A stretch of 56,564 bases of DNA from Methanobacteriota archaeon (GCA_027064305.1 JAMOPY010000040.1:1-56564), one strand, 5' to 3'. Shown: positions 4,479 to 33,415, counted from the stretch's first letter. Notes: generated from the sequence alone by a model not told the origin. Program-made: numbers and translations.

Positions 4479-5444
4479 TCAGACCGCCCCTTTGGCCAGG
4501 AGGTATAGGCGAGCGAGCGCGAAGGCCATGAGGAACGCCCCGACGGGGCTCGCGACCCAGGTTATGAGAATCTTCCTGACCGTGTACAGGTTCAACTCTC
4601 CCTGAGACAGCCCCACCCCGATGACCGCGCCCGAGGTCGTCTCGTTGATCGAGATCGGGAGGCCGAACTCCGAGGCGCCGTGGGTCACCATCGCGGCGGA
4701 GAGCTGGGCGGAGAAGGCCGTAATCGGGTCGAGCTTGGTGATCTTGCGCCCCACGGTCTCGATCACGCGGGAGCCGGCCGTCAGGGCGCCCAGGGAGATC
4801 ATGACGCCGCCGATCACGGACGCCGTTCGGACGTCCAGCACCCCCGCCATCACGAGCGGGGCGACCGCGTTGGCCGCGTTGTTCGCCCCGATGGAGTACG
4901 CCACGTAACAGCCGGAGACCATGAGGAACAGCCTCATCATGCGCTCCAGCTCGCCCAGCGAGCGCCGCCTGGAGCGCAGCTCCCTGCGCAGCCACCGCGA
5001 GATCACGTACGCGGGCGCGGCGGCGATCGTGGGCGCGACCAGCCAGCTCACGGCGATCTCGGAGAGCTTGTCCCAGTTCACGGGGAGCCCGAGGGCGTAC
5101 CCCGTCCCGGCGATGGCGCCCACGGTGGCCTGGGTGGTGGAGATCGGTACGCCGAGCATGACCGCCACGTGGCACCAGACGGCCGCGACGAACACGGTCG
5201 CGCCCGCCAGGACGGGGTCCAGGTGGGCCTGGACCACGCCCTTACCCAGCGTCTTGACGACCTTGTGCCCCTCCAGCACGGCGCCCGCGGTCGTGAACAC
5301 GGCGATCAGGAGGACGGCCCGCCGGATCGTGAGCACGCCGGCCCCTACCGCCGATCCCATCGCGGCGCCCGCGTCGTCCGCCCCGATCGTCCAGCCCATG
5401 TACAGGGACGGGATCGCCACCGCCAGGAGGTCGAGAAGGCTCAC
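4479..5444 (-). CDS. Inorganic phosphate transporter, PiT family
   Basis: GADDA and GANNAANA signatures, GVPISTTQ, GSRVIETVG..IT.L; hydrophobic. Confidence 0.9.
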   Translation of the reverse strand: MSLLDLLAVAIPSLYMGWTIGADDAGAAMGSAVGAGVLTIRRAVLLIAVFTTAGAVLEGHKVVKTLGKGVVQAHLDPVLAGATVFVAAVWCHVAVMLGVPISTTQATVGAIAGTGYALGLPVNWDKLSEIAVSWLVAPTIAAAPAYVISRWLRRELRSRRRSLGELERMMRLFLMVSGCYVAYSIGANNAANAVAPLVMAGVLDVRTASVIGGVMISLGALTAGSRVIETVGRKITKLDPITAFSAQLSAAMVTHGASEFGLPISINETTSGAVIGVGLSQGELNLYTVRKILITWVASPVGAFLMAFALARLYLLAKGAV

Positions 5445-20299: not shown

Positions 20300-22174
20300 T
20301 CAGCGTCCGAACCGCGGCCGCTCGCTGAGCCGCATCGGCGCGGTCAGCGGCACCCGCGGCTTGCCCTCCGTCTCCCGCTCGAGCCGCTCGACGAGCTCCT
20401 CGAGCGTCATCTCCACCCGCTTCTGCTCCTTGAGCGTTGACTCCTCCCGGATCGTCACCGACAGCGTGCCCTTCTCCACCTCCTCCTCTCCGATAACCAC
20501 CACGTAGGGTACCCACTCCTTGCCCGCGTCCCTGATCTTCCTGCCCACCGGCTCGTCCCGGTCGTCCAGATCGACCCGGAACCCCTCCTCCCGCAGCCGC
20601 TCGGCCACCTTCTCCGCCTCGTCCAGCACCTTCTCGGACACCGGGATCACCCGCACCTGCACGGGGGACAGCCAGGTCGGCAGCGTGGGCAGCCGACCCT
20701 CCCGTTCGAACCGCTTCTGCTGGTGCTCGAGCAGCGCGCAGATCACCCGCTCCAGGCTGCCGGTGGGTGAACAGTGCAGGATCACCGGGTGCCGCTCCTC
20801 CCCGGACTCGTCCGCGAACGTGATGTCGAACCGCTCCCCGCTCTCCACGTCGATCTGCACGGTCGGGTTCTCGATGGGCCGGCCCAGGCTGTCGATGAAC
20901 GCGAAGTCCACCTTGCACTCCCAGTAGTGCTTCCGCTCGGAGAGCACCTCCACGAGGATTGGCTTGGAGTCCCCGTACACCTCCTCCACGGCCTCGGCCA
21001 GCCCCTCGAGCACCTCGGGTCGCTCGTCCAGGAAGTCCTCCGTGACCCGCAGCACGACCTCGTACTCCAGCCCCAGCTCCCGCCCCACCTCCAGGCACAG
21101 CCTCGCCTGCTCCAGGAACTCCTCCACCGCCTGGTCCATGTCGGCGCACACCGTGTGCAGGTCCGGCATCGTGAACGCCCGCAGTCGCTTCAGCCCGACC
21201 ACCTCGCCGCTCTGCTCCAGCCGGAAGCTCTGCGACAGCTCGTACACCTTGAACGGCAGGTGCCGTCGGCTCAGCGTCGTGTCGGCGAGCAGCCGGAACG
21301 CCCCGAAGCAGGCCGCGTACCGGAGCATCAGCGCCCGGTTGCCCGCCCGCAGCCGGTACTGCCGCTCGCCGAACCGGTCCGCGTGCTCCCGGATCGCCTC
21401 CTCGCCCAGGTCGTACATAACCGGCGTCTCCACCACCGCCGCGCCCATCCCCGCCATCAGGTCCTCCACGTACTCCGCCAGGCACCGTCGGATCACGTGC
21501 CCGTACGGGTACCAGCGCACGTGACCCACGTCCGCCGCCGGCTCGTGATCGCAGATCCCCTTCTCCCGCATCAACCGCACGTGGGCCGGCTCCTCCCCGC
21601 CCGACTCCCGCTCCTCGCCCAGCTCGTGCAGCACCAGCCGTCGGAAGTCCTCGGGGCACTCCGACAGGTCCACCTCCTCCACGTCCCTCAGCTCACCGTC
21701 CACGTACACCATGAACGACGACTCGACCTCCCGCTCCTCCCCCGCCTCGGCCGCCTCCGGGGTGACCGTGCGGGACAGCTCCGAGAGCGGGTGCCCCTTG
21801 CAGGCCAGCCGGAACGCCTTGTACCAGCCGAAGGGGGCGCGCACCACCTCGTACCCACGCTCCCGCAGGAGCTCCTCCATCCTCCTCAGCACCTCGACGG
21901 CCACGTCCGGGGAGGCCAGATCCTCCGCGAGGTGCGCGTACGGGTACAGGACGATCCGATCCACCTTCAGCTCGCCGGCGACGTCCTCCACCTCCCGCAC
22001 GGCCGCCTCGGCGACCGCCTCCGGGTCCTCCTCGTCGACCTCCTGCACCGCCGCGAACACGACCAGGCAGTCCTCCACCTCCGCCTCCTTCGTCGGCGGC
22101 TCCTCCTCCGCGATCCCGGTCCTCTGCCGCGCCTCGAACGCCATCTCGTCCGCGTGAATGAGCAGCATCCTCAC
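20300..22174 (-). CDS. thrS: Threonine--tRNA ligase, archaeal type with editing domain
   Basis: MRMLLIHAD, YPYAHL, APFGWYK, CKGHPLSELSR, LRYAACFG, PDLHT, LHCSPTGSLER. Confidence 0.97.
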   Translation of the reverse strand: MRMLLIHADEMAFEARQRTGIAEEEPPTKEAEVEDCLVVFAAVQEVDEEDPEAVAEAAVREVEDVAGELKVDRIVLYPYAHLAEDLASPDVAVEVLRRMEELLRERGYEVVRAPFGWYKAFRLACKGHPLSELSRTVTPEAAEAGEEREVESSFMVYVDGELRDVEEVDLSECPEDFRRLVLHELGEERESGGEEPAHVRLMREKGICDHEPAADVGHVRWYPYGHVIRRCLAEYVEDLMAGMGAAVVETPVMYDLGEEAIREHADRFGERQYRLRAGNRALMLRYAACFGAFRLLADTTLSRRHLPFKVYELSQSFRLEQSGEVVGLKRLRAFTMPDLHTVCADMDQAVEEFLEQARLCLEVGRELGLEYEVVLRVTEDFLDERPEVLEGLAEAVEEVYGDSKPILVEVLSERKHYWECKVDFAFIDSLGRPIENPTVQIDVESGERFDITFADESGEERHPVILHCSPTGSLERVICALLEHQQKRFEREGRLPTLPTWLSPVQVRVIPVSEKVLDEAEKVAERLREEGFRVDLDDRDEPVGRKIRDAGKEWVPYVVVIGEEEVEKGTLSVTIREESTLKEQKRVEMTLEELVERLERETEGKPRVPLTAPMRLSERPRFGR

Positions 22175-22309: not shown

Positions 22310-22360
22310 CGATCCACGCTTAACCGGAGCGCGCGATGCACCGTGCGGGGTGCCCAACTC

Positions 22361-22702
22361 ATGTCCAGGCAGCCCGGAGAACCCGCCCGGGACGAGGAGG
22401 AGAAGGGCCTCATCGCCGTGAAGTACGCCCGGGAGATGCTGGGTGACGAGTACGCGGACCTCGTGGAGAAGATGCACGAGCTCGTCTGGAAGGAGTCCCC
22501 CTTGGACCCCAAGACGACGCACCTGATCGCGCTCGCCCTGGCCGCGGCGTCCGGGGACGACCGTCGGGTGGAGCTGATCGCCGAGACGGCCAAGAACGTC
22601 GCGGACGTGACGGACGAGGAGATCGCCGCCACGCTGGCCCTCGTGGCGTGGGTGGAGGGCGTGTCCAAGTCGACTAGGGCCTGGGGCGTTCTTCGTCGCT
22701 AG
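22361..22702 (+). CDS. Carboxymuconolactone decarboxylase (CMD/AhpD-like) family protein
   Basis: SPLDPKTTHLIALALAAA...VTDEEIA signature; no CxxC. Confidence 0.8.
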   Translation: MSRQPGEPARDEEEKGLIAVKYAREMLGDEYADLVEKMHELVWKESPLDPKTTHLIALALAAASGDDRRVELIAETAKNVADVTDEEIAATLALVAWVEGVSKSTRAWGVLRR

Positions 22703-24024: not shown

Positions 24025-24936
24025 TCACGGGCCCGAGGGGTGGTAGGGGCGCCACGTCGCGCACCGGGAGTCGCGCACCCGCTCCCGCTTGTCCCGGGCC
24101 AGCCGCTCCAGCACCTTCGGATCGCCCTCACTCACCTCCCGGGTCTCCAGCCTCCCGGCGTCCACGGCGGACTGCAGGATCTCCTCGCCCCGGTCGGTGC
24201 GCGTCAGCACGACGTTCCAACCGTCCGGGGCGCCCGTGGATCCGACGCTCACGTCCGCGTCCTCGGCCGTCAGGTCGGCGCAGAAGTGGCACGCCTCGTT
24301 AGCGTACCGGCTCAGCCGCGAGACGGGCACCGTCCGCTCCTCGCCGTCCTCGGTGACCACGGTGAACTTGCCCGCCGTGATGTCCATGCGTTCCACCCGT
24401 GAGGGGTCGACCCCGAGCTCCTCGCGCAGCAGGCGTTGCAGGTTCTCGTACTCCAGGTTCTCGGAGCAGAAGATGCCCACGAGCAGTCGAACGCGCTCCG
24501 CGACGTCGGCCACCCCGTGCGCGTACCGCTCCGCCTTCCGCACGGCGGTGACCTGGCACGGCGTGCCGACCAGGGCGACGGACTCGTGGGCGCTCACGGC
24601 CTCCTCGAGCAGGCTCACGTTCGGTGAGATGGCGTACTTCGAGCCCGCCGCCTCGAGCAGCTCCTCCGGGCTCGTGACGACGGTGGGCTCGGGCTTCCAC
24701 GGGTCGGACCCGGTCGTCGCCACGATCGCGGCCTCGACGAGCCCCTCCTCGAGCGCGTGGGTGAGGAGGGCGGTGGTGACTCCGCCGTCCTGGCCGGCCT
24801 CGCGGACGCGCTCGTCCGTGGCCCGGGCCAGGTACGCGCTCCGGTACGGTCCCACGAGCTCGGGGTCGAGCTCCTCACCGCCGTCGCGCCGGCTCCTGCC
24901 GAGTACCTTCCGCAGCAGACCGCGCACGGGTTTCAC
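24025..24936 (-). CDS. F420-binding FrhB-like subunit
   Basis: QDGGVTTALL, AAGSKY, VGTPCQ, GIFCSEN, CHFCAD..AEDADVSVGS. Confidence 0.93.
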   Translation of the reverse strand: MKPVRGLLRKVLGRSRRDGGEELDPELVGPYRSAYLARATDERVREAGQDGGVTTALLTHALEEGLVEAAIVATTGSDPWKPEPTVVTSPEELLEAAGSKYAISPNVSLLEEAVSAHESVALVGTPCQVTAVRKAERYAHGVADVAERVRLLVGIFCSENLEYENLQRLLREELGVDPSRVERMDITAGKFTVVTEDGEERTVPVSRLSRYANEACHFCADLTAEDADVSVGSTGAPDGWNVVLTRTDRGEEILQSAVDAGRLETREVSEGDPKVLERLARDKRERVRDSRCATWRPYHPSGP

Positions 24937-24943
24937 CCCCCGG

Positions 24944-25660
24944 CTACGGCCGGAACGATCTCGGACAGACGACGAAGCACGTGCCGCATCGAATGCATCG
25001 TTCCTGACGGACCTCGGGCTTCTCGTCGAGCTCGATGGCCCGCGCCGGGCACGCGGCGGCGCACGTGCCGCAGCCCACGCAGAACAGGTCCCTCTCGATG
25101 ACGTCCAGGTCGCAGCCCAGGCACAGGTCCTTGTTGGACGTCAGCAGGACGTCCTCCACCTCCAGCTCCGGGCCGCGGACGGGCGCGGGCAGGTCCGGGG
25201 CCAGCCCGTGGAAGTCCCCGGACAGGACCCGGTACGGCTCGAGTCGGTCCTCGTCGCCCTCCTCCAGCGCCCGGAGGAAGGCGGCGATGGCGTCCTCGGT
25301 GGGCGGGCAGCCCGGGATCGCGTAGTCCGTGCCGGCGAACTTGGCGGCCGGGAACACCGTGAAGTGGTACCGGGCGGGCTCCCGCATGCCGATCGCGTGC
25401 CGGGCGAAGCCCCCGGTGGCGGCGCAGGAGCCCAGCGTCACGACCGTGTCGGCCGAGGTCACCGCCCGCTCGAGCCGCTCCTGGGCCTCCGCGTCCTCGA
25501 AGTCCACGGCGCCCTCCACGAACAGGACGTCCACGTCGGGCACTTCCCCGTCGTCCGTCAGGCTCGACCAGGCCAGCTCGTGACCCGTCCTCCGGCAGGC
25601 GAGCTCCAGGTTCTCCGCGCAGGACCCGCAGGACATGAGGGAGAGCAGGGCCACCCTCAC
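24944..25660 (-). CDS. FrhG-like Fe-S small subunit
   Basis: SCGSC, VEGAV, GSCAATGG, IPGCPP, plus ferredoxin motifs CVGCGTCAAACP and CIRCGTCFVVCP. Confidence 0.92.
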   Translation of the reverse strand: MRVALLSLMSCGSCAENLELACRRTGHELAWSSLTDDGEVPDVDVLFVEGAVDFEDAEAQERLERAVTSADTVVTLGSCAATGGFARHAIGMREPARYHFTVFPAAKFAGTDYAIPGCPPTEDAIAAFLRALEEGDEDRLEPYRVLSGDFHGLAPDLPAPVRGPELEVEDVLLTSNKDLCLGCDLDVIERDLFCVGCGTCAAACPARAIELDEKPEVRQERCIRCGTCFVVCPRSFRP

Positions 25661-25672
25661 GGTGCGAACCCC

Positions 25673-26770
25673 CTAGTGCGTGAGGCACCGTCCGGACAGT
25701 CCGAGCGGGCGCAGGGCCGTCTCCACCTGCTCGACCTCCAGCCCGGTCAGCAGGTCGCCCGCGAGGGCCACCTTGAAGTTGGAAGGCGTGATCATCTCGG
25801 CCCAGTCCACGCGGCCGTTCCGGAGCCGCAGTCGGACGATCAGGGTCCCCTCAGGGGCCTCCACCGCGGCCGTCCCCTCGCCGGAGCCGGCCTCCGCCTC
25901 GGCGCGGAACTCGCCGGTCGCGTCCAGGCTCGAGGCGGTGTCCGCGATCCGGTCCAGCAGCTCCGTGAGCTCCTCGGCCCGGGCCACGTGGTGGTCGGCT
26001 GGGTGCTCCGCGCCTCCCCGCCGCGCGGCGGGTCCGACCAGCGCGGGCTCGCCGTCGTACCGGGCCACGTGGTTGGTGGCCAGGCTCCTCGTGGTCCTCA
26101 TACGGTAGAACTCCGAGGGGGGTAGGACCTCGATCCTGTCGGGGTCCACCTCGCCCGTGTACGTGTCCGAGACGCTCAGCTCGGTCGGCCGGATCCGGGA
26201 CTCCACGCTCACCTCCTCCCGGAGCTCGTCCGCGGCCGACTCCACCCGGTCCCGGAGCCCCTCCGCCGCCTCGGCCGCGTCCTTGGCCACGCTCTCGAGG
26301 CGCTCCACCGGCAGCCGCTCGAGCTCCAGCCCGCCCACGGTCACGGCCGGCGGGTGGTGGGGCTTGCCGCCCACCATCCTCAGGAGCTCTCGGGCCGCGC
26401 GGACGACCTCGTGGGCCTCCTCCGCCGCGCCCGGGACGGCGGAGGCCAGCGTCCGGGCGTGGGCGCGGACCACGTTGGCCATGTTCAGCAGCTCGCGGGC
26501 CCGCCTCGCGTCGTCCGGCACGCTCACGTTCAGGGCGTCCTCGGCCGCCTCCGCCACGGCCAGTCCGGCGCTGGCGTCGCAGCCGCGGCACACCCGCTCG
26601 GCGGCCACGATGGCGAACTCCACGGGCTTCTCCAGGACCAGCGTCTCCCAGGAGAGGGGGACGGTCGTGGAGCACACCTCGGCGTTCACGATCCGGCCGT
26701 CGGAGACCTCCGCCACGGCCCGCAGCTCGCCCGGCTCCCCGGTTTTGACCGTGAGGGTTTTCACCTCCAT
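25673..26770 (-). CDS. FrhA-like hydrogenase large-subunit homologue with a degenerate [NiFe] site
   Basis: ERVCRGC (L1), GGKPHHP, GPAAR, VEAPEG, ITPS, C-terminal PLGLSGRCLTH-stop (L2 remnant). Confidence 0.88.
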   Translation of the reverse strand: MEVKTLTVKTGEPGELRAVAEVSDGRIVNAEVCSTTVPLSWETLVLEKPVEFAIVAAERVCRGCDASAGLAVAEAAEDALNVSVPDDARRARELLNMANVVRAHARTLASAVPGAAEEAHEVVRAARELLRMVGGKPHHPPAVTVGGLELERLPVERLESVAKDAAEAAEGLRDRVESAADELREEVSVESRIRPTELSVSDTYTGEVDPDRIEVLPPSEFYRMRTTRSLATNHVARYDGEPALVGPAARRGGAEHPADHHVARAEELTELLDRIADTASSLDATGEFRAEAEAGSGEGTAAVEAPEGTLIVRLRLRNGRVDWAEMITPSNFKVALAGDLLTGLEVEQVETALRPLGLSGRCLTH

Positions 26771-26805
26771 GCCCACCACCGTCCCGGAAAACGGGTTGGG
26801 AGGAA

Positions 26806-28719
26806 TCAGATACCCAGGCGCTTCCGCTTCTCCTCGATCTTGTCGGCCAGGATCTCGGCGGCCTTCTCCATGTCCGTCTCGATGATCAGCTCGCCTCCGG
26901 TGAGATCCGGCAGGTCCTCGGTCAGCGTCTTCGTGACCACCTCGCTGCCGGTCACGGGCGGGACCGGGCTCACGTGCAGCGTGAGTCCCAGCGCCAGGGC
27001 CGAGGACGCGTCCGCCAGCGCCTGTTCCTCGAGCCACTGCGGCGCGCTCGCGACGGCCGGGACGTCCGGGATGTCGATCTCTTCGCCGGTCTGCTCCCGG
27101 AGGATCTCGGCGATCTCGAAGACCAGGTGCTCGATCTTACCGATCGCGAGGCACGGTCCGTAGTGGAGCACGGGCGGAATGCCCAGGTCCTCGCAGACCT
27201 GTCGGAGGTTCTCACCGGCGAGCTCGGCCGCCTCGGGGTTGAACAGGCCGGCGTTGGCCAGGGCGCCGTTCACGCAGCCGGCGCCGAGGACGAGGATGTC
27301 CCGCTTGATCATCTCCTTGGCCAGCGTGGCGGCCGGCACGTTGTGCCCACCGCTGGCCAGGTTCGTGCAGCCCACGATCGCGCAGACGCCGCGGATGGTG
27401 CCCTCCTGGATCAGCTTGAGCACGTTCTCCCAGCCGACCGCCTCCTCGATGGAGAAGTAGCCGAAGCCCACCACGTTCTCGTGCCGGTGCTCGGGCTCCA
27501 GGATCTTGTCCTCGTGCTTCGAGCGGCGCTCCTTGAACGCCTCGATGGCCCGCCTCACGGCCTCCTCGGCCACCTCCTCCGCGCGCTCCGGGTCCCACAG
27601 GATCAGCTCCGCGCCCCACACCTTGGCCACGTCGTCCACGGCGACCAGCTTGACGTCCAGCTTCTCCCCGTAGAACTTCAGGCCCGGGAACGTGCAGTTG
27701 AACTCGCTCACGATCGCGTCCACGAGGCCCGTCGCGGCCAGGGCCTCCGTCGTGAAGTTGTTGCCCGCGAAGCCCGCGTACGTGTCCGGCAGGTGCTCCG
27801 CGCGCGCCTCGAAGTCGTCACCGACGCACGTCGCCCCGATGATCCGGATCCCCTTGGCCCCGGCCTTCTTGGCCTCCTCCTCCAGCCGCTCGGCGGCGTC
27901 CGTGAGGTACTTCTGCAGGGACATCTGGTGCCCGGTGACCATGATGTTCACGTAGTCCGGGTCCAGGATGCCCGGGCCGCCCTCCGTCTTCGTGATCCGC
28001 GGGCTCCCGAAGAGGATGTCGTTGATCGTTTCCACGCCGAACAGGGAGACCGGGCCCGTGATCAGGCCCAGCCGGAGCACGTGCAGGAGCATGTCCTCCG
28101 GGTCCGAGTTCAGGTTCGTGCTCGTCTTCACCAGCGCGTCGTGAATCTCGGCCTTGGCGCCGCCCGGGATCAGCCCCATCTCCTCGTACATCTCGACCCG
28201 CCAGTCCGGCACGACGGCCTTGAACACCTCCGACTCCTCGTACCGGGGCCGGTAGATGTCCTCCAGGATGAAGTCCGCGATCTCCTCCGCCACGTCCTCG
28301 GGCTTGCCCGAGGCGTCTAGCCCGTACACCTCCGCCGCGTGCCGCAGGGCCTCCTCGTCCGCGACCTCGTACGGGGAGTCCTCGTCCGCCACGGACTTCA
28401 GGGCCCGCGCCGCGTTCTCCAGGCAGTGCACGTAGCACGCGGCGCCCGCGGCCACGTGCCGGAGGAAGTTGCGCGCCACGATCACGTCCGCCGTGGCGCC
28501 GCACACGCCGCGCGGCGTCTTCTCCGTGATCCGACAGGGACCGTTCGAGCAGATGTTGCACCACACGCCCTGCTTACCGTACGGGCACTTCGGGAACTGC
28601 ACCGGCCACCGGATGTGCGGGGTCTCGATCTCCGGGATCTCCTCGTTCAGCCGCTTCGCGTGCTCAACCAGCTCGCGGACGACCTCGTCCGTGTACGGGC
28701 ACCGCTCCTCCTCCGACAT
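26806..28719 (-). CDS. cooS: CooS-type Ni-CODH homologue with atypical catalytic residues
   Basis: CPYGKQGVWCNICSNGPC, RGVCGA, TGHQ, ATCVG, FNCTFP, VGCTN, GAGC, YGPC, PQWLEEQA. Confidence 0.93.
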   Translation of the reverse strand: MSEEERCPYTDEVVRELVEHAKRLNEEIPEIETPHIRWPVQFPKCPYGKQGVWCNICSNGPCRITEKTPRGVCGATADVIVARNFLRHVAAGAACYVHCLENAARALKSVADEDSPYEVADEEALRHAAEVYGLDASGKPEDVAEEIADFILEDIYRPRYEESEVFKAVVPDWRVEMYEEMGLIPGGAKAEIHDALVKTSTNLNSDPEDMLLHVLRLGLITGPVSLFGVETINDILFGSPRITKTEGGPGILDPDYVNIMVTGHQMSLQKYLTDAAERLEEEAKKAGAKGIRIIGATCVGDDFEARAEHLPDTYAGFAGNNFTTEALAATGLVDAIVSEFNCTFPGLKFYGEKLDVKLVAVDDVAKVWGAELILWDPERAEEVAEEAVRRAIEAFKERRSKHEDKILEPEHRHENVVGFGYFSIEEAVGWENVLKLIQEGTIRGVCAIVGCTNLASGGHNVPAATLAKEMIKRDILVLGAGCVNGALANAGLFNPEAAELAGENLRQVCEDLGIPPVLHYGPCLAIGKIEHLVFEIAEILREQTGEEIDIPDVPAVASAPQWLEEQALADASSALALGLTLHVSPVPPVTGSEVVTKTLTEDLPDLTGGELIIETDMEKAAEILADKIEEKRKRLGI

Positions 28720-30453: not shown

Positions 30454-32142
30454 TCACTCCTCGCCCAGGATGTCGCGGAGCTCGCCCCCGGGCGGCACCA
30501 TGGGGATGATCTCGTCCGGGTCGACGAGGACGTCCACCACGACGGTGCCCGGGGCCTCCAGCGCCTCTTCCACGGCCGATTCCAGGTCCGAAGGGTCGTC
30601 GACCAGGATCCCGGTCGCCCCGTACGACTCGGTCAGCTGCACGATGTCCGTGCGCTCGTCGAGCTTGGACTCGGACAGTCGCTCGTCGTAGAACAGGCGC
30701 TGCCACTGGGCGACCATGCCGAGCAGGCGGTTGTCCATGACGAACACCTTCACCTCGATGTCGTTGTCCACGGCCGTGGCCAGCTCCTGCGCGGTCATCA
30801 GGAAGCCGCCGTCCCCGACCACGGCGATCACGGTTTTCTCGGGCGCGGCCACCTTGGCCCCGATCGCGGCCGGTAGCCCGAAGCCCATGGTGCCCAGGCC
30901 GCCGGAGGAGATGAACTGTCGGGGCTCCTCGACGGGGAAGTACCGGGCCATCCACATCTGGTTCTGTCCCACGTCGGTGACGACGATGAAGTCCCGGTCT
31001 CGGAGCGCCTCGTGCAGGACGCGGACGAGCTCCTTCGGGTGCACGCGCTCCCCGGACTCGGTGGGCTCCGGTGGCAGCTCCACCTCGCGCTTGAGCTCCC
31101 GGATCCGGTCGCCCCAGCGCGTTCGGTCCCGGAGGCCCTTTCGGCGCTTCAGCTCCTTGATCAGGTCGCGCAGGACGAGCTTGGCGTCGCCCACGATGGG
31201 GACGTCCGCGGGCACGTTCTTGCCGATCTCGGCCGGGTCGATGTCGACGTGGATGATCTTGGCGTCCGGGGCGAACCCGGAGGGATCGCCGGTGGTGCGG
31301 TCGGAGAAGCGGCAGCCGACGGCGAGGAGCACGTCGCACTCGGTGAGGGCGTAGTTCGCGGCCTTGGTCCCGTGCATGCCGGCCATGCCGAGGGCCAGCG
31401 GGTGGTCCTCCGGGAACGCGCCCTTGCCCATCAGGGTGGTGGCGACGGGGGCGCCCAGGAGCTCCGCGAGCTCCACCAGCTCGCGGGTCGCGTTGGAGAG
31501 GACGCATCCGCCGCCCGCGAGGATGACGGGCCGCTCCGCCTCGGCCAGCAGCTCGGCCGCCCGCCGGATCTGACGCGGGTGCCCCCGCTTGACCACCTTC
31601 AGCCCCTCCACCTCGACCCGACGCGGGATCTCGGCCTCCGTCTCCGCCTCCTGCACGTCCTTGGGCACGTCGATGTGCACGGGCCCCGGGCGGCCCGCGG
31701 TCGCGACCTTGAACGCCTCGCGCACGACCTTGGGGACCTCCTCGGGCCGCCGGATCTGGTAGTTGTGCTTCGTGATCGGCATGAACACGCCCACGGCGTC
31801 GACCTCCTGGAACGCGTCCCGGCCGACCATCTCCGTGGGCACCTGGCCCGTGATCGCGATCACGGGGGAGGAGTCCATGTACGCCGTCGCGATCCCGGTC
31901 ACCAGGTTCGTGGCGCCCGGCCCGGACGTGGCCATGCAGACCCCCGGCTCACCCTTCACCCGCGCGTACCCGTCCGCCGCGTGGGCCGCGCCCTGCTCGT
32001 GCCGGACGAGCACGTGCTCGATGGCGACCTCGTCGTAGATCTCGTCGTACACGGGCAGGATGGCGCCGCCCGGGTACCCGAAGATGTGCCGCACACCCTC
32101 CTCCTTCAGGCACTCCACGAGCAGCCGGGCGCCCGTGGGCAA
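30454..32142 (-). CDS. ilvB: Acetolactate synthase large subunit
   Basis: FGYPGGAILP, RHEQGAAHAADGYAR, TSGPGATN, TDVGQNQMW, GDGGF. Confidence 0.97.
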   Translation of the reverse strand: MPTGARLLVECLKEEGVRHIFGYPGGAILPVYDEIYDEVAIEHVLVRHEQGAAHAADGYARVKGEPGVCMATSGPGATNLVTGIATAYMDSSPVIAITGQVPTEMVGRDAFQEVDAVGVFMPITKHNYQIRRPEEVPKVVREAFKVATAGRPGPVHIDVPKDVQEAETEAEIPRRVEVEGLKVVKRGHPRQIRRAAELLAEAERPVILAGGGCVLSNATRELVELAELLGAPVATTLMGKGAFPEDHPLALGMAGMHGTKAANYALTECDVLLAVGCRFSDRTTGDPSGFAPDAKIIHVDIDPAEIGKNVPADVPIVGDAKLVLRDLIKELKRRKGLRDRTRWGDRIRELKREVELPPEPTESGERVHPKELVRVLHEALRDRDFIVVTDVGQNQMWMARYFPVEEPRQFISSGGLGTMGFGLPAAIGAKVAAPEKTVIAVVGDGGFLMTAQELATAVDNDIEVKVFVMDNRLLGMVAQWQRLFYDERLSESKLDERTDIVQLTESYGATGILVDDPSDLESAVEEALEAPGTVVVDVLVDPDEIIPMVPPGGELRDILGEE

Positions 32143-32143
32143 C

Positions 32144-33415
32144 TCACCCACCCTCCACGAGCACGGGTTCACCGACCCTCCGGGACTCCTCCAGGTCGTA
32201 CACGCGATCCTCCAGGATGAGCCGCGTGGGTCGCCCGTACATCCGGAGCCCGTCGTAGGGGAACTTCCGGTCCTCCTCCATGAGTCTCTCGGCGCTCACC
32301 CGGAACTCCCGGGTCTCCACCACCGCGATCCGGGCCCGCCGGCCGGGGGCCACCTCCCCCAGGTCCTCGCGACCCAGGATCCGGGCCGGGTTCCGGGTGA
32401 TCATGTCCACGGCCCGCCGCAGCGACACCCCGTACCGGCGGTGCAGCGTGAGCGCCGCCGGCAGCAGCAGTCCCCCGGAGGAAACCCCGGAGGGCGCCTC
32501 CTCGAACCGATCCACCCGGGGGTGCGGCGCGTGATCGGTGGCCAGCACGTCCACCCGACCCCGCCGCACCCGCTCCAGCAGCCCGAGCCGTTGCCGCCGG
32601 CCCCGGATCGGCGGGTTCACCTTCAGCGTCGGGTCCCGCGCGTCCACCCTCAGCGTGTCGAAGAATAGGTGGTGCGGGGTCACCTCCACGGTCATTCCGG
32701 CCCGCCGGGCCAGGTCCACGGACTCGGGCAGCGTGGCGTGGCACACGTGCGCCCGACCGCCGACGGCCGAGACCGCCCCCGCCAGCAGCCCCACCGCGGT
32801 CGCCTCCGCCTCCGGGGGACGGTTCAGGTGATGGTCCAGTAGATCGCTCGCCCCGTCCTCGGACACCAGCTCCCCCAGCTCCGCGTGGAAGAGCACCGGC
32901 GCGTCGCCCGCGGCCCGTAGGATCCCGGGCACCTCCGACGGCTCGATGACCGGGGCGTCGGTGGACGGGGCCAGGAAGGCCTCCCCGAGGACGGGCGCCC
33001 CGGCGCTCACCAGCTCTCGCACGTTACCCTTGTCCCTCACGGCCCCGGACACGATGACCTCGATCAGGGCCCTGCGCCGGGCTCGTCTCTCCTTCTCCCG
33101 GAACGTCTCCGCGTCGACCGGGGCGGGCCGGGTGTTGGGCATGTCCACGGCGGTGGCCACGCCGCCGAGCAGCAGGCGCAGGGTCTCCGTCCGGAAGTCG
33201 AAGTCGTAGTCCGGGTGCGGGTCCCGGCAGTGCACGTGCAGGTCGATGGGCGCCGGCAGCGCCACCTCTCCCTCCCGCAGCCGGATCCTCCGGTCCACCT
33301 CCTCGCTGATCGAGCGGGAGACCCGCACGATCCACCCGTTCTCGACCAGCACCTTGGCCTCGACGATCCGACCCCGCCGGTAGACGCGCCCCTCGAGCAG
33401 CAGCCTCATGGTCAT
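32144..33415 (-). CDS. pyrC: Dihydroorotase
   Basis: IDLHVHCRDP, DMPNT, HAE, EVTPHHL, KVNPPIR, ATDHAPH. Confidence 0.92.
   Translation of the reverse strand: MTMRLLLEGRVYRRGRIVEAKVLVENGWIVRVSRSISEEVDRRIRLREGEVALPAPIDLHVHCRDPHPDYDFDFRTETLRLLLGGVATAVDMPNTRPAPVDAETFREKERRARRRALIEVIVSGAVRDKGNVRELVSAGAPVLGEAFLAPSTDAPVIEPSEVPGILRAAGDAPVLFHAELGELVSEDGASDLLDHHLNRPPEAEATAVGLLAGAVSAVGGRAHVCHATLPESVDLARRAGMTVEVTPHHLFFDTLRVDARDPTLKVNPPIRGRRQRLGLLERVRRGRVDVLATDHAPHPRVDRFEEAPSGVSSGGLLLPAALTLHRRYGVSLRRAVDMITRNPARILGREDLGEVAPGRRARIAVVETREFRVSAERLMEEDRKFPYDGLRMYGRPTRLILEDRVYDLEESRRVGEPVLVEGG

Follow-up and report, generated by a model that had tools for sequence, protein, structure and literature searches.

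A conserved cooS-linked operon of methanogens that retains a degenerate F420-hydrogenase large subunit

The four genes of the operon

The window analysed here is a 56,564-nucleotide stretch of DNA from a Methanobacteriota archaeon (GCA_027064305.1, JAMOPY010000040.1:1-56564), with a G+C content of about 70% and with proteins whose closest named relatives are those of Methanopyrus. Positions 24025 to 28719 hold cooS, for the catalytic subunit of a Ni-dependent carbon monoxide dehydrogenase (CODH), followed by three genes resembling those for subunits A, G and B of the coenzyme F420-reducing hydrogenase, denoted here frhA', frhG' and frhB' (Table 1). The original prediction for this DNA described the four genes as an operon in which the hydrogenase scaffold is reused as an electron wire between F420 and CooS. 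The analysis reported here shows that the operon is real and conserved, that it is mis-named and that it retains, unusually, a pseudo-hydrogenase. The predicted gene order, common direction and intergenic gaps (35, 12 and 7 bp) agree exactly with the coordinates, and no cooC, cooF or frhD protease gene, all three claimed to be absent, was found between the genes for ThrRS and the AHAS large subunit.

Table 1 Features of the locus (positions in the window); dN/dS values are for the window genes compared with four Methanopyri loci
Feature	Coordinates	Strand	Description	dN/dS
cooS	28719-26806	minus	637 aa; Ni-CODH catalytic subunit	0.04-0.16
frhA-like (frhA')	26770-25673	minus	365 aa; degenerate [NiFe]-hydrogenase large subunit	0.29-0.43
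frhG-like (frhG')	25660-24944	minus	238 aa; PF01058 + Fer4 domains	0.11-0.25
frhB-like (frhB')	24936-24025	minus	303 aa; F420/FAD/[4Fe-4S] subunit	0.24-0.39
cooS promoter	28801-28746	minus	palindromes 28801-28786 and 28761-28746 flank TATA-like box TTTATATT at 28782-28775	
Rubrerythrin-like gene promoter	30163-30137	minus	third palindrome (30163-30148) directly upstream of TATA-like box	
Rubrerythrin-like diiron protein	30099-29713	minus	128 aa, no rubredoxin domain; PF02915 48 bits	
DUF166 protein	29683-28847	minus	Cys-rich; PF02593 214 bits	
orf182	23977 (likely start)-23516; open frame to 24064	minus	small conserved protein; downstream of frhB', co-directional; GCKIC motif	
MsvR-like regulator	23468-22674	minus	last gene of co-directional block; HTH_20 66.6 bits, V4R 65.4 bits	
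CMD-family gene	22343-22702	plus	convergent with block	
ThrRS	20300-22174		bounds block together with CMD-family gene	
AHAS (acetolactate synthase) large subunit	30454-32172		bounds block on other side	

CooS scored 732.5 bits against TIGR01702 (cut-off 478) and 499.6 bits against PF03063, and its best match among solved structures was 6t7j (E = 4.5e-117), with 7b7q and 6elq as further relatives. Against the cdhA model it scored 34.7 bits where 781 is required, so it is a CooS-type CODH and not a CdhA. The states of its functional residues were read from an alignment with 20 other archaeal CooS sequences, using the ligand numbering of ChCODH-II. In CooS and its Methanopyri orthologues all six C-cluster ligands (one His and five Cys) and all four B-cluster Cys are kept; one of the two D-cluster Cys is present and the second position is Trp. 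The acid-base pair is replaced, His by Tyr and Lys by Gln, and a C-Y-V-H-C motif lies at the position of the catalytic His (residues 95-99; 28425-28439, minus strand). This motif is common to Methanopyri and the second lineage described below and is absent from the other 16 CooS sequences aligned. A full C-cluster motif with Tyr and Gln at the acid-base positions is the signature of clade C, and a single D-cluster Cys marks the archaeal group C-3 (Inoue 2019, PMC6344411, Table 2). By its score and by these residues CooS is a genuine Ni-CODH, and it bears the signature of group C-3. A CooS orthologue in another genome (G093, L036:9067-11121) has 684 residues against 627 in a close relative; it was matched in two pieces with no stop between them, pointing to an insertion of about 57 residues.

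FrhA' matched FrhA in 4ci0/3zfs over its whole length (residues 11-364, E = 5e-23), and its predicted model (pLDDT 90.9) gave TMq values of 0.86-0.92 to 9r51_A, 6qgr_A and 3zfs_A. Its family scores were low, with only 41.9 bits for PF00374 and 114.7 for TIGR03295 (cut-off 392.5). A loss of active-site residues had been predicted, and it proved wider than first stated, as four features are gone. The N-terminal RxEGH reads xxPGE, the His that follows the first CxxC in the canonical RxCGxCxxxH is missing, EAPRG has become EAPEG and DPCxxCxxH has become GLSGRCLTH, with Ser for the first Cys of this second motif. Three of the four Ni/Fe-binding Cys are kept. Its last residue is the very His at which mature large subunits terminate, and a C-terminal extension is absent. 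These motif losses are invariant in nine homologues, whose alignment has 117 invariant columns, and the nearest relatives outside the FrhA' group retain all of the canonical motifs. When 1.84 billion cluster representatives were searched with HMMER, only the cluster of FrhA' itself lay above 1e-30, the next match reaching 92 bits at 27% identity. The lost RxEGH, His, EAPRG Arg and DPC residues are needed for H2 activation; the loss of the four features therefore argues that FrhA', which has the FrhA fold, is a pseudo-hydrogenase, not a hydrogenase. Its homologues carry the public names 'Ni/Fe hydrogenase subunit alpha' and 'coenzyme F420 hydrogenase subunit alpha'.

The window's genome (G000, 89% complete) holds a separate canonical F420-reducing hydrogenase, encoded away from the locus by fruA/frhG/frhB genes on another contig (C36:57413-54389, L055). 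Its A gene has an in-frame stop at ...RCYDI, at the site of the canonical DPC motif, and this is the position that is Ser in FrhA'; we take this stop to encode selenocysteine, as in a Fru-type enzyme. No frhD was seen between the A and G genes there.

FrhG' matched FrhG of the solved enzyme (3zfs_B, E = 2.3e-33) and scored 145.6 against TIGR03294, below the cut-off of 245.5. C11, C14, C79 and C118 occupy the four proximal-cluster positions, and there are two CxxCxxCxxxCP motifs (eight Cys). Fourteen Cys are invariant across both lineages, and an insert, VLLTSNK[DE]LCLGCD, occurs in FrhG' of each lineage and is absent from the genome's canonical FrhG and from the solved enzyme. FrhB' matched PF04422 (108.3 bits), PF04432 (161.4 bits) and NF006807 (334, cut-off 269), and scored 286 against the equivalog TIGR03289 (cut-off 331.5). 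Over residues 28-290 it matched FrhB (3zfs_C, E = 1.5e-71), and further matches were 8rja_E and 8riu_B (1.9e-52), the latter presumably the FrhB-like subunit of Ethanoperedens. FrhG' and FrhB' thus keep all cluster and flavin-domain hallmarks, in line with the predicted retention of Fe-S and FAD/F420 motifs. A complex prediction for CooS and FrhG' as a monomer pair (seven-row alignments) scored 0.00 in two runs with controls that were not folded, and so speaks neither for nor against binding.

Distribution and evolution

A synteny search for cooS next to a degenerate frhA, which the original prediction had proposed as a check, revealed a conserved order in two archaeal classes. CooS was found, and the block counted, in all six Methanopyri genomes searched. 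The full block with its neighbours recurs in three Methanopyri loci from metagenome-assembled genomes and in two complete genomes of the genus, and three further loci that were checked show FrhA' and FrhG' after CooS. Among 101 relatives, 23 have CooS at E ≤ 1e-50. The two closest CooS sequences outside Methanopyri, at 57-58% identity, belong to an AT-rich family (f24) and are also encoded in the arrangement cooS-frhA'-frhG'-frhB'. In this second class of methanogens an FrhA' match was present in 15 of 40 genomes (13 of 17 in family f24, both genomes of genus g78 and none of the remaining 21). CooS lies directly upstream in 14 of these 15, and FrhG' and FrhB' lie downstream wherever the locus extends far enough. 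Group C-3 has been reported from Methanocaldococcus and Methanotorris (Inoue 2019, PMC6344411), which the distribution observed in the second class fits. Within family f24, CooS and an intact Frh' set occur jointly or are both missing. The conserved order in two classes together with this joint presence and absence ties the Frh-like set to CooS.

Genome G104 encodes a 395-aa fusion (L095:1501-2688) of an FrhA'-like part with an N-terminal FrhG'-like domain, with no ferredoxin domain and with neither CooS nor FrhB' adjoining. With the query used, CooS was matched in none of five genomes, namely G104 and the four f24 genomes that have no FrhA'. The fusion protein seems to be what remains of an operon that has been lost.

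FrhA' of the second lineage is shorter (298 aa), the first 40 or so residues being missing. Its motif positions read RLCCLN and EGGEG, and it ends before the second Cys motif. A single Ni-site Cys, the first, is common to FrhA' of both lineages, so no shared metal site is evident.

Comparison of the window genes with those of the four Methanopyri loci (Table 1) showed that FrhA' is the least constrained of the four. It is nevertheless under purifying selection and is not a pseudogene. CooS is far more conserved than its partners in both lineages (95% against 57% at locus L094 and 90% against 55% at locus L003). A tree of FrhB-type domains unites the canonical FrhB proteins of both lineages in one starred clade, and each CooS-linked FrhB' group forms a starred clade of its own outside it.

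Neighbouring genes and operator sites

From the rubrerythrin-like gene through the MsvR-like gene the locus is one co-directional minus-strand block, in which the open reading frames show the codon-position G+C pattern of real genes. The original prediction had pointed to stress-related neighbours. The rubrerythrin-like, DUF166 and MsvR-like genes bear this out; the CMD-family protein does not, as it contains no cysteine in its whole sequence. CxxC is the motif of AhpD-type peroxidases, and without it the CMD-family protein adds little to the stress argument. The rubrerythrin-like protein is 89-95% identical in related loci. The regulator has a winged-helix helix-turn-helix and V4R architecture. 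The small protein encoded by orf182 is conserved in Methanopyri loci and had no Pfam or NCBIfam match at E values up to 10. Its similarity to the V4R part of the regulator covers 27 residues only (E = 0.009 for a single comparison), and its atlas leads, RdxA_C and MJ0207, scored 0.89-0.91, which is within the chance range.

Boxes of the MsvR type, also predicted, are present. The MsvR site has been given as TTCGN7-9CGAA (PMC3729527). Three matches occur in the window against 1.65 expected, and at least three were reached in 24 of 100 shuffles, so the count alone is unremarkable. Each of the matches nevertheless has the stricter palindromic form TTCGA-N6-TCGAA, and this form occurs exactly three times in the whole 1,208,994-base assembly, each time at one of the two promoters of this locus, those of cooS and of the rubrerythrin-like gene. 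In the cooS promoter the TATA-like box is some 55 nt ahead of the ATG; one palindrome abuts it on its upstream side and the other covers the expected transcription start. A single promoter for the four genes had been claimed: this box agrees with the claim, and further internal promoters are possible. At the other five Methanopyri loci (L001, L002, L003, L041 and L042) a box is found in the same position upstream of the rubrerythrin-like gene in every case. MsvR in its reduced state acts as a repressor of transcription, and its targets in Methanothermobacter include the gene for an F420H2 oxidase (PMC3729527).

In the second lineage the block lies among genes for a peroxiredoxin (395.9 bits), a rubrerythrin (237.4 bits) and a hybrid-cluster protein (HCP, 853.5 bits), and its neighbours also include a flavodiiron protein, two flavoproteins, NikR and a ferredoxin. 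A link to redox stress is supported by this stress-gene island and by the restriction of MsvR-type operators to the present locus. Queries from the second lineage for FprA, peroxiredoxin, the 195-aa rubrerythrin and HCP found no match in the window's genome (89% complete).

Four RNA runs from one study of a cultured relative were also available as assembled contigs, in which DNA carry-over is possible. They contain pieces of the rubrerythrin-like gene, frhA', frhB', orf182 and the regulator; the same contigs cover the 5' region of cooS and the sequence upstream of it, and they carry no information on level, strand or operon structure. At L041:7531-7532, contigs in three of the four runs gain A-runs about 29 nt past the stop codon of the rubrerythrin-like gene, which hints at an RNA 3' end.

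An arrangement with some of the same elements was seen in an unrelated archaeal family (L037:3599-9771, genome G039). There an MsvR-like gene is divergent from genes for a DUF166 protein, a clade C CooS, with the DUF166 gene again directly upstream, and two membrane proteins. This CooS has a complete D-cluster and the Tyr/Gln pair, and the palindrome TTCGA-N6-TCGAA stands before its gene at position 5287. The first membrane protein behind cooS has a weak match (61 bits) to subunit I of cytochrome bd oxidase.

Elsewhere in the window's genome, contig C23 encodes two MinD/ParA-type ATPases with a CxC motif, beside cdhC and beside a CooF-like ferredoxin. CxC is the mark of CooC, and these two proteins are candidates for Ni insertion in trans. 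The same cdh-gene contig, about 70 kb from the cdh genes, contains a ferredoxin-like stretch (a 45-residue match to the ferredoxin domain of FrhG') directly upstream of a same-strand FrhB-like region (C23:76768-77760, L056). In the FrhB tree this region groups with the FrhB-like regions of open frames of 673-674 aa from other Methanopyri and of 627-629 aa from family f24.

Proposed function and alternatives

The reading that we favour, and consider somewhat probable, is that the operon encodes a redox-stress-controlled CooS:F420 oxidoreductase, an archaeal counterpart of the bacterial CooS-CooF-FNOR system. The association of CooS with the Frh' proteins, the substrate, the direction of electron flow and the regulation are inferred in this reading. 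The four gene products would then form one cytoplasmic oxidoreductase that couples the Ni,Fe C-cluster of a C-3 CooS to F420. As CooS has no complete D-cluster, electrons at its B-cluster would need a bound Fe-S partner. FrhG' would be the wire, with three [4Fe-4S] clusters, and FrhB' would provide a further [4Fe-4S] cluster, FAD and the F420 site. FrhA' would no longer activate H2 and would serve as a structural partner of FrhG', possibly also as a docking surface for CooS. The favoured direction would be CO + F420 -> CO2 + F420H2; with potentials of about -520 mV for CO and about -340 mV for F420 this is some 180 mV downhill. The adjacent MsvR-like regulator would repress both the operon and the rubrerythrin-like/DUF166 pair in the reduced cell, and oxidising stress would release this repression.

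Parts of this scheme have known counterparts. FrhABG of group 3a (PDB 4omf/3zfs, 6qgr, 9r51) has the same three subunit folds, the gene order A-G-B and the cofactor motifs of FrhG and FrhB; here the large subunit has neither the NiFe-site features nor the C-terminal extension, there is no frhD and cooS stands in front. In complex I (NuoD/NuoB) and Fpo a group 4 [NiFe] large subunit has lost its metal ligands and still has as its partner a small subunit in which the proximal cluster is retained. Those complexes are membrane-bound and carry a quinone or methanophenazine site, whereas the set described here would be soluble, derived from group 3a and paired with a CODH. Both the structure and the activity of the F420-reducing CODH of Ca. 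Ethanoperedens have been determined, and this enzyme passes electrons from CO to F420 via a ferredoxin domain and an FrhB-like subunit (PMC11493965). In that enzyme, the alpha2 epsilon2 zeta2 subcomplex of the acetyl-CoA decarbonylase/synthase of Ca. Ethanoperedens thermophilum, a Ni-CODH is likewise wired by [4Fe-4S] clusters to an FrhB-type FAD/F420 subunit. It differs in that its CODH is a CdhA of clade A together with CdhB, that its FrhB-like zeta subunit includes the ferredoxin domain as a fusion and that its role is catabolic (PMC11493965); the present system has a clade C-3 CooS without a full D-cluster, separate FrhG' and FrhB', an added dead large subunit and a stress-type regulator. 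The bacterial clade C CooS-CooF-FNOR clusters share the Tyr/Gln pair with a full C-cluster, the combination of CooS with an Fe-S protein, a flavoprotein and a regulator, and a link to oxygen exposure (PMC6344411; PMC13056359). They differ in their NAD(P) flavoprotein, in CooF as the Fe-S partner and in a type II D-cluster (PMC6344411; PMC13056359), where the present operon has hydrogenase-derived parts, F420 as the cofactor and an incomplete D-cluster.

Earlier surveys touch on this gene association. The neighbours of clade C cooS genes include Fe-S proteins (72%), NAD(P)/FAD oxidoreductases (71%) and regulators (58%) (PMC13056359), and a C-1 CooS-FNOR-CooF cluster has been reported to be induced by O2 (Inoue 2019, PMC6344411). 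The same paper has only groups E-1, F-1 and F-2 coexisting with hydrogenase catalytic subunits, and Techtmann 2012 listed the CooS proteins of M. kandleri and Methanocaldococcus as 'unlinked'. A 2026 marine survey places archaeal clade C Ni-CODHs mostly beside 'F420-reducing hydrogenase' genes, with an unclear role (PMC13240472). The original prediction had stated that no complex of this kind was characterised. This holds for the present architecture; an F420-reducing CODH (PMC11493965) and the gene association itself (PMC13240472) had already been published. The portions of the literature searched, which did not cover supplementary context tables, contain no statement of a degenerate FrhA, of an Frh set as a CODH partner or of MsvR-type control, and the available part of PMC6775978 contains no description of a degenerate FrhA.

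Several observations weigh against the CooS:F420 oxidoreductase. All four proximal-cluster Cys of FrhG' are kept, which would not be expected with FrhA' as a mere scaffold and the ferredoxin domain as the entry point for electrons. Sequence change is much more rapid in FrhB' and FrhA' than in CooS (identities of 55-77% and 90-93%, respectively), which could mean a looser partnership, and the FrhB tree leaves it unsettled whether the CooS-linked FrhB' proteins of the two lineages are sisters, their union not being rejected by the approximately unbiased test (p = 0.22). Exact boxes precede cooS in three of the six Methanopyri loci, the window included, and the remaining three retain the layout but carry one or two mismatches; the regulator scored 101.8 bits against the MsvR model NF053755, which has a cut-off of 220. 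An FprA-type F420H2 oxidase (a flavodiiron protein) was found in none of five Methanopyri genomes with the query used and, as FprA, peroxiredoxin and HCP were not matched, F420H2 would in Methanopyri be put to a stress use without an identified consumer. Clade C CODHs lack the His/Lys acid-base pair (Inoue 2019, PMC6344411). Their CO activity has been called unresolved, and the single enzyme isolated so far was of low activity (PMC13056359).

The last two points speak for the most serious rival, in which the same complex would run in reverse, with F420H2 as the donor and the C-cluster reducing hydroxylamine, NO, N2O, O2 or peroxide as an HCP-like detoxifying reductase. The original prediction had put this forward as a possibility, partly on the ground that CODH and HCP have a common fold. 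The replacement of the acid-base His/Lys by Tyr/Gln, with the C-Y-V-H-C motif at the same position, would suit such a reaction, as would the indications of MsvR-type control and the HCP, rubrerythrin, peroxiredoxin and flavodiiron protein genes around the block in the second lineage. Genes resembling that for cytochrome bd subunit I, next to the clade C cooS at L037, point the same way, and clade D ChCODH-V has been described as having no CO activity (PMC13056359). On the other hand, CooS keeps all of the Ni/Fe ligands of the C-cluster, whereas the HCP-like clade D-1 enzymes in the same residue table have Glu at the Cys295 position. NikR adjoins the block in the second lineage, and the sole clade C enzyme to be isolated did oxidise CO (cited in PMC13056359). 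A detoxifying reductase is considered unlikely.

The kept proximal-cluster Cys raise a different alternative, in which electrons flow towards FrhA' and its remodelled pocket has become a new active or binding site, as in complex I; the Frh-like trimer would then act independently and CooS, merely co-transcribed, would use ferredoxin. Purifying selection on FrhA', with its 117 invariant columns, and the retention in one genome of a fused FrhA'-FrhG' N-domain protein without CooS are consistent with this. Only one of the four Ni-site Cys is common to FrhA' of both lineages, however, an intact FrhA'G'B' set without CooS was never found in the genomes examined, and the D-cluster, through which electrons usually leave for ferredoxin, is incomplete in CooS. 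An independent trimer is on this evidence distinctly improbable. That the locus holds a conventional second F420-reducing hydrogenase and, unrelated to it, a solitary cooS, as the database names of the homologues and the wording of the 2026 survey (PMC13240472) would imply, is very unlikely given the motif data: FrhA' falls far under the TIGR03295 cut-off, four active-site features present in its closest canonical relatives are missing from it, and the genome holds a separate canonical enzyme with a stop at the expected selenocysteine position. The original prediction had already denied that the Frh-like set is an ordinary hydrogenase, and a large subunit without NiFe-site features next to FrhG' and FrhB' with intact hallmarks upholds this.

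Returning to the CooS:F420 oxidoreductase, a more specific and rather unlikely version of it may be put forward tentatively. A soluble group 3a hydrogenase may have been exapted in the way that a group 4 enzyme was in complex I, with the C-cluster of CooS replacing the NiFe site. CooS would dock on the FrhA'/FrhG' face, its B-cluster would feed the proximal cluster of FrhG' and FrhA' would be the adaptor. Hyperthermophilic methanogens would then have a supply of F420H2 that is powered by CO, switched by MsvR and used to recover from oxidative stress. If true, this would be the first defined physiological role for clade C CODHs.

The function of clade C has been called unresolved in recent surveys, and the operon offers a defined, conserved set of partners and a testable activity. 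One of the host lineages has a genetic system, so that knock-outs and tagged purification look feasible. The 'F420 hydrogenase alpha' genes beside cooS in these genomes are probably not hydrogenase genes, which alters hydrogenase counts in deep-branching methanogens. FrhA' would be a clear soluble case of a dead hydrogenase large subunit retained within another enzyme, and the operon would connect the metabolism of CO or F420 with MsvR, the redox regulator of methanogens.

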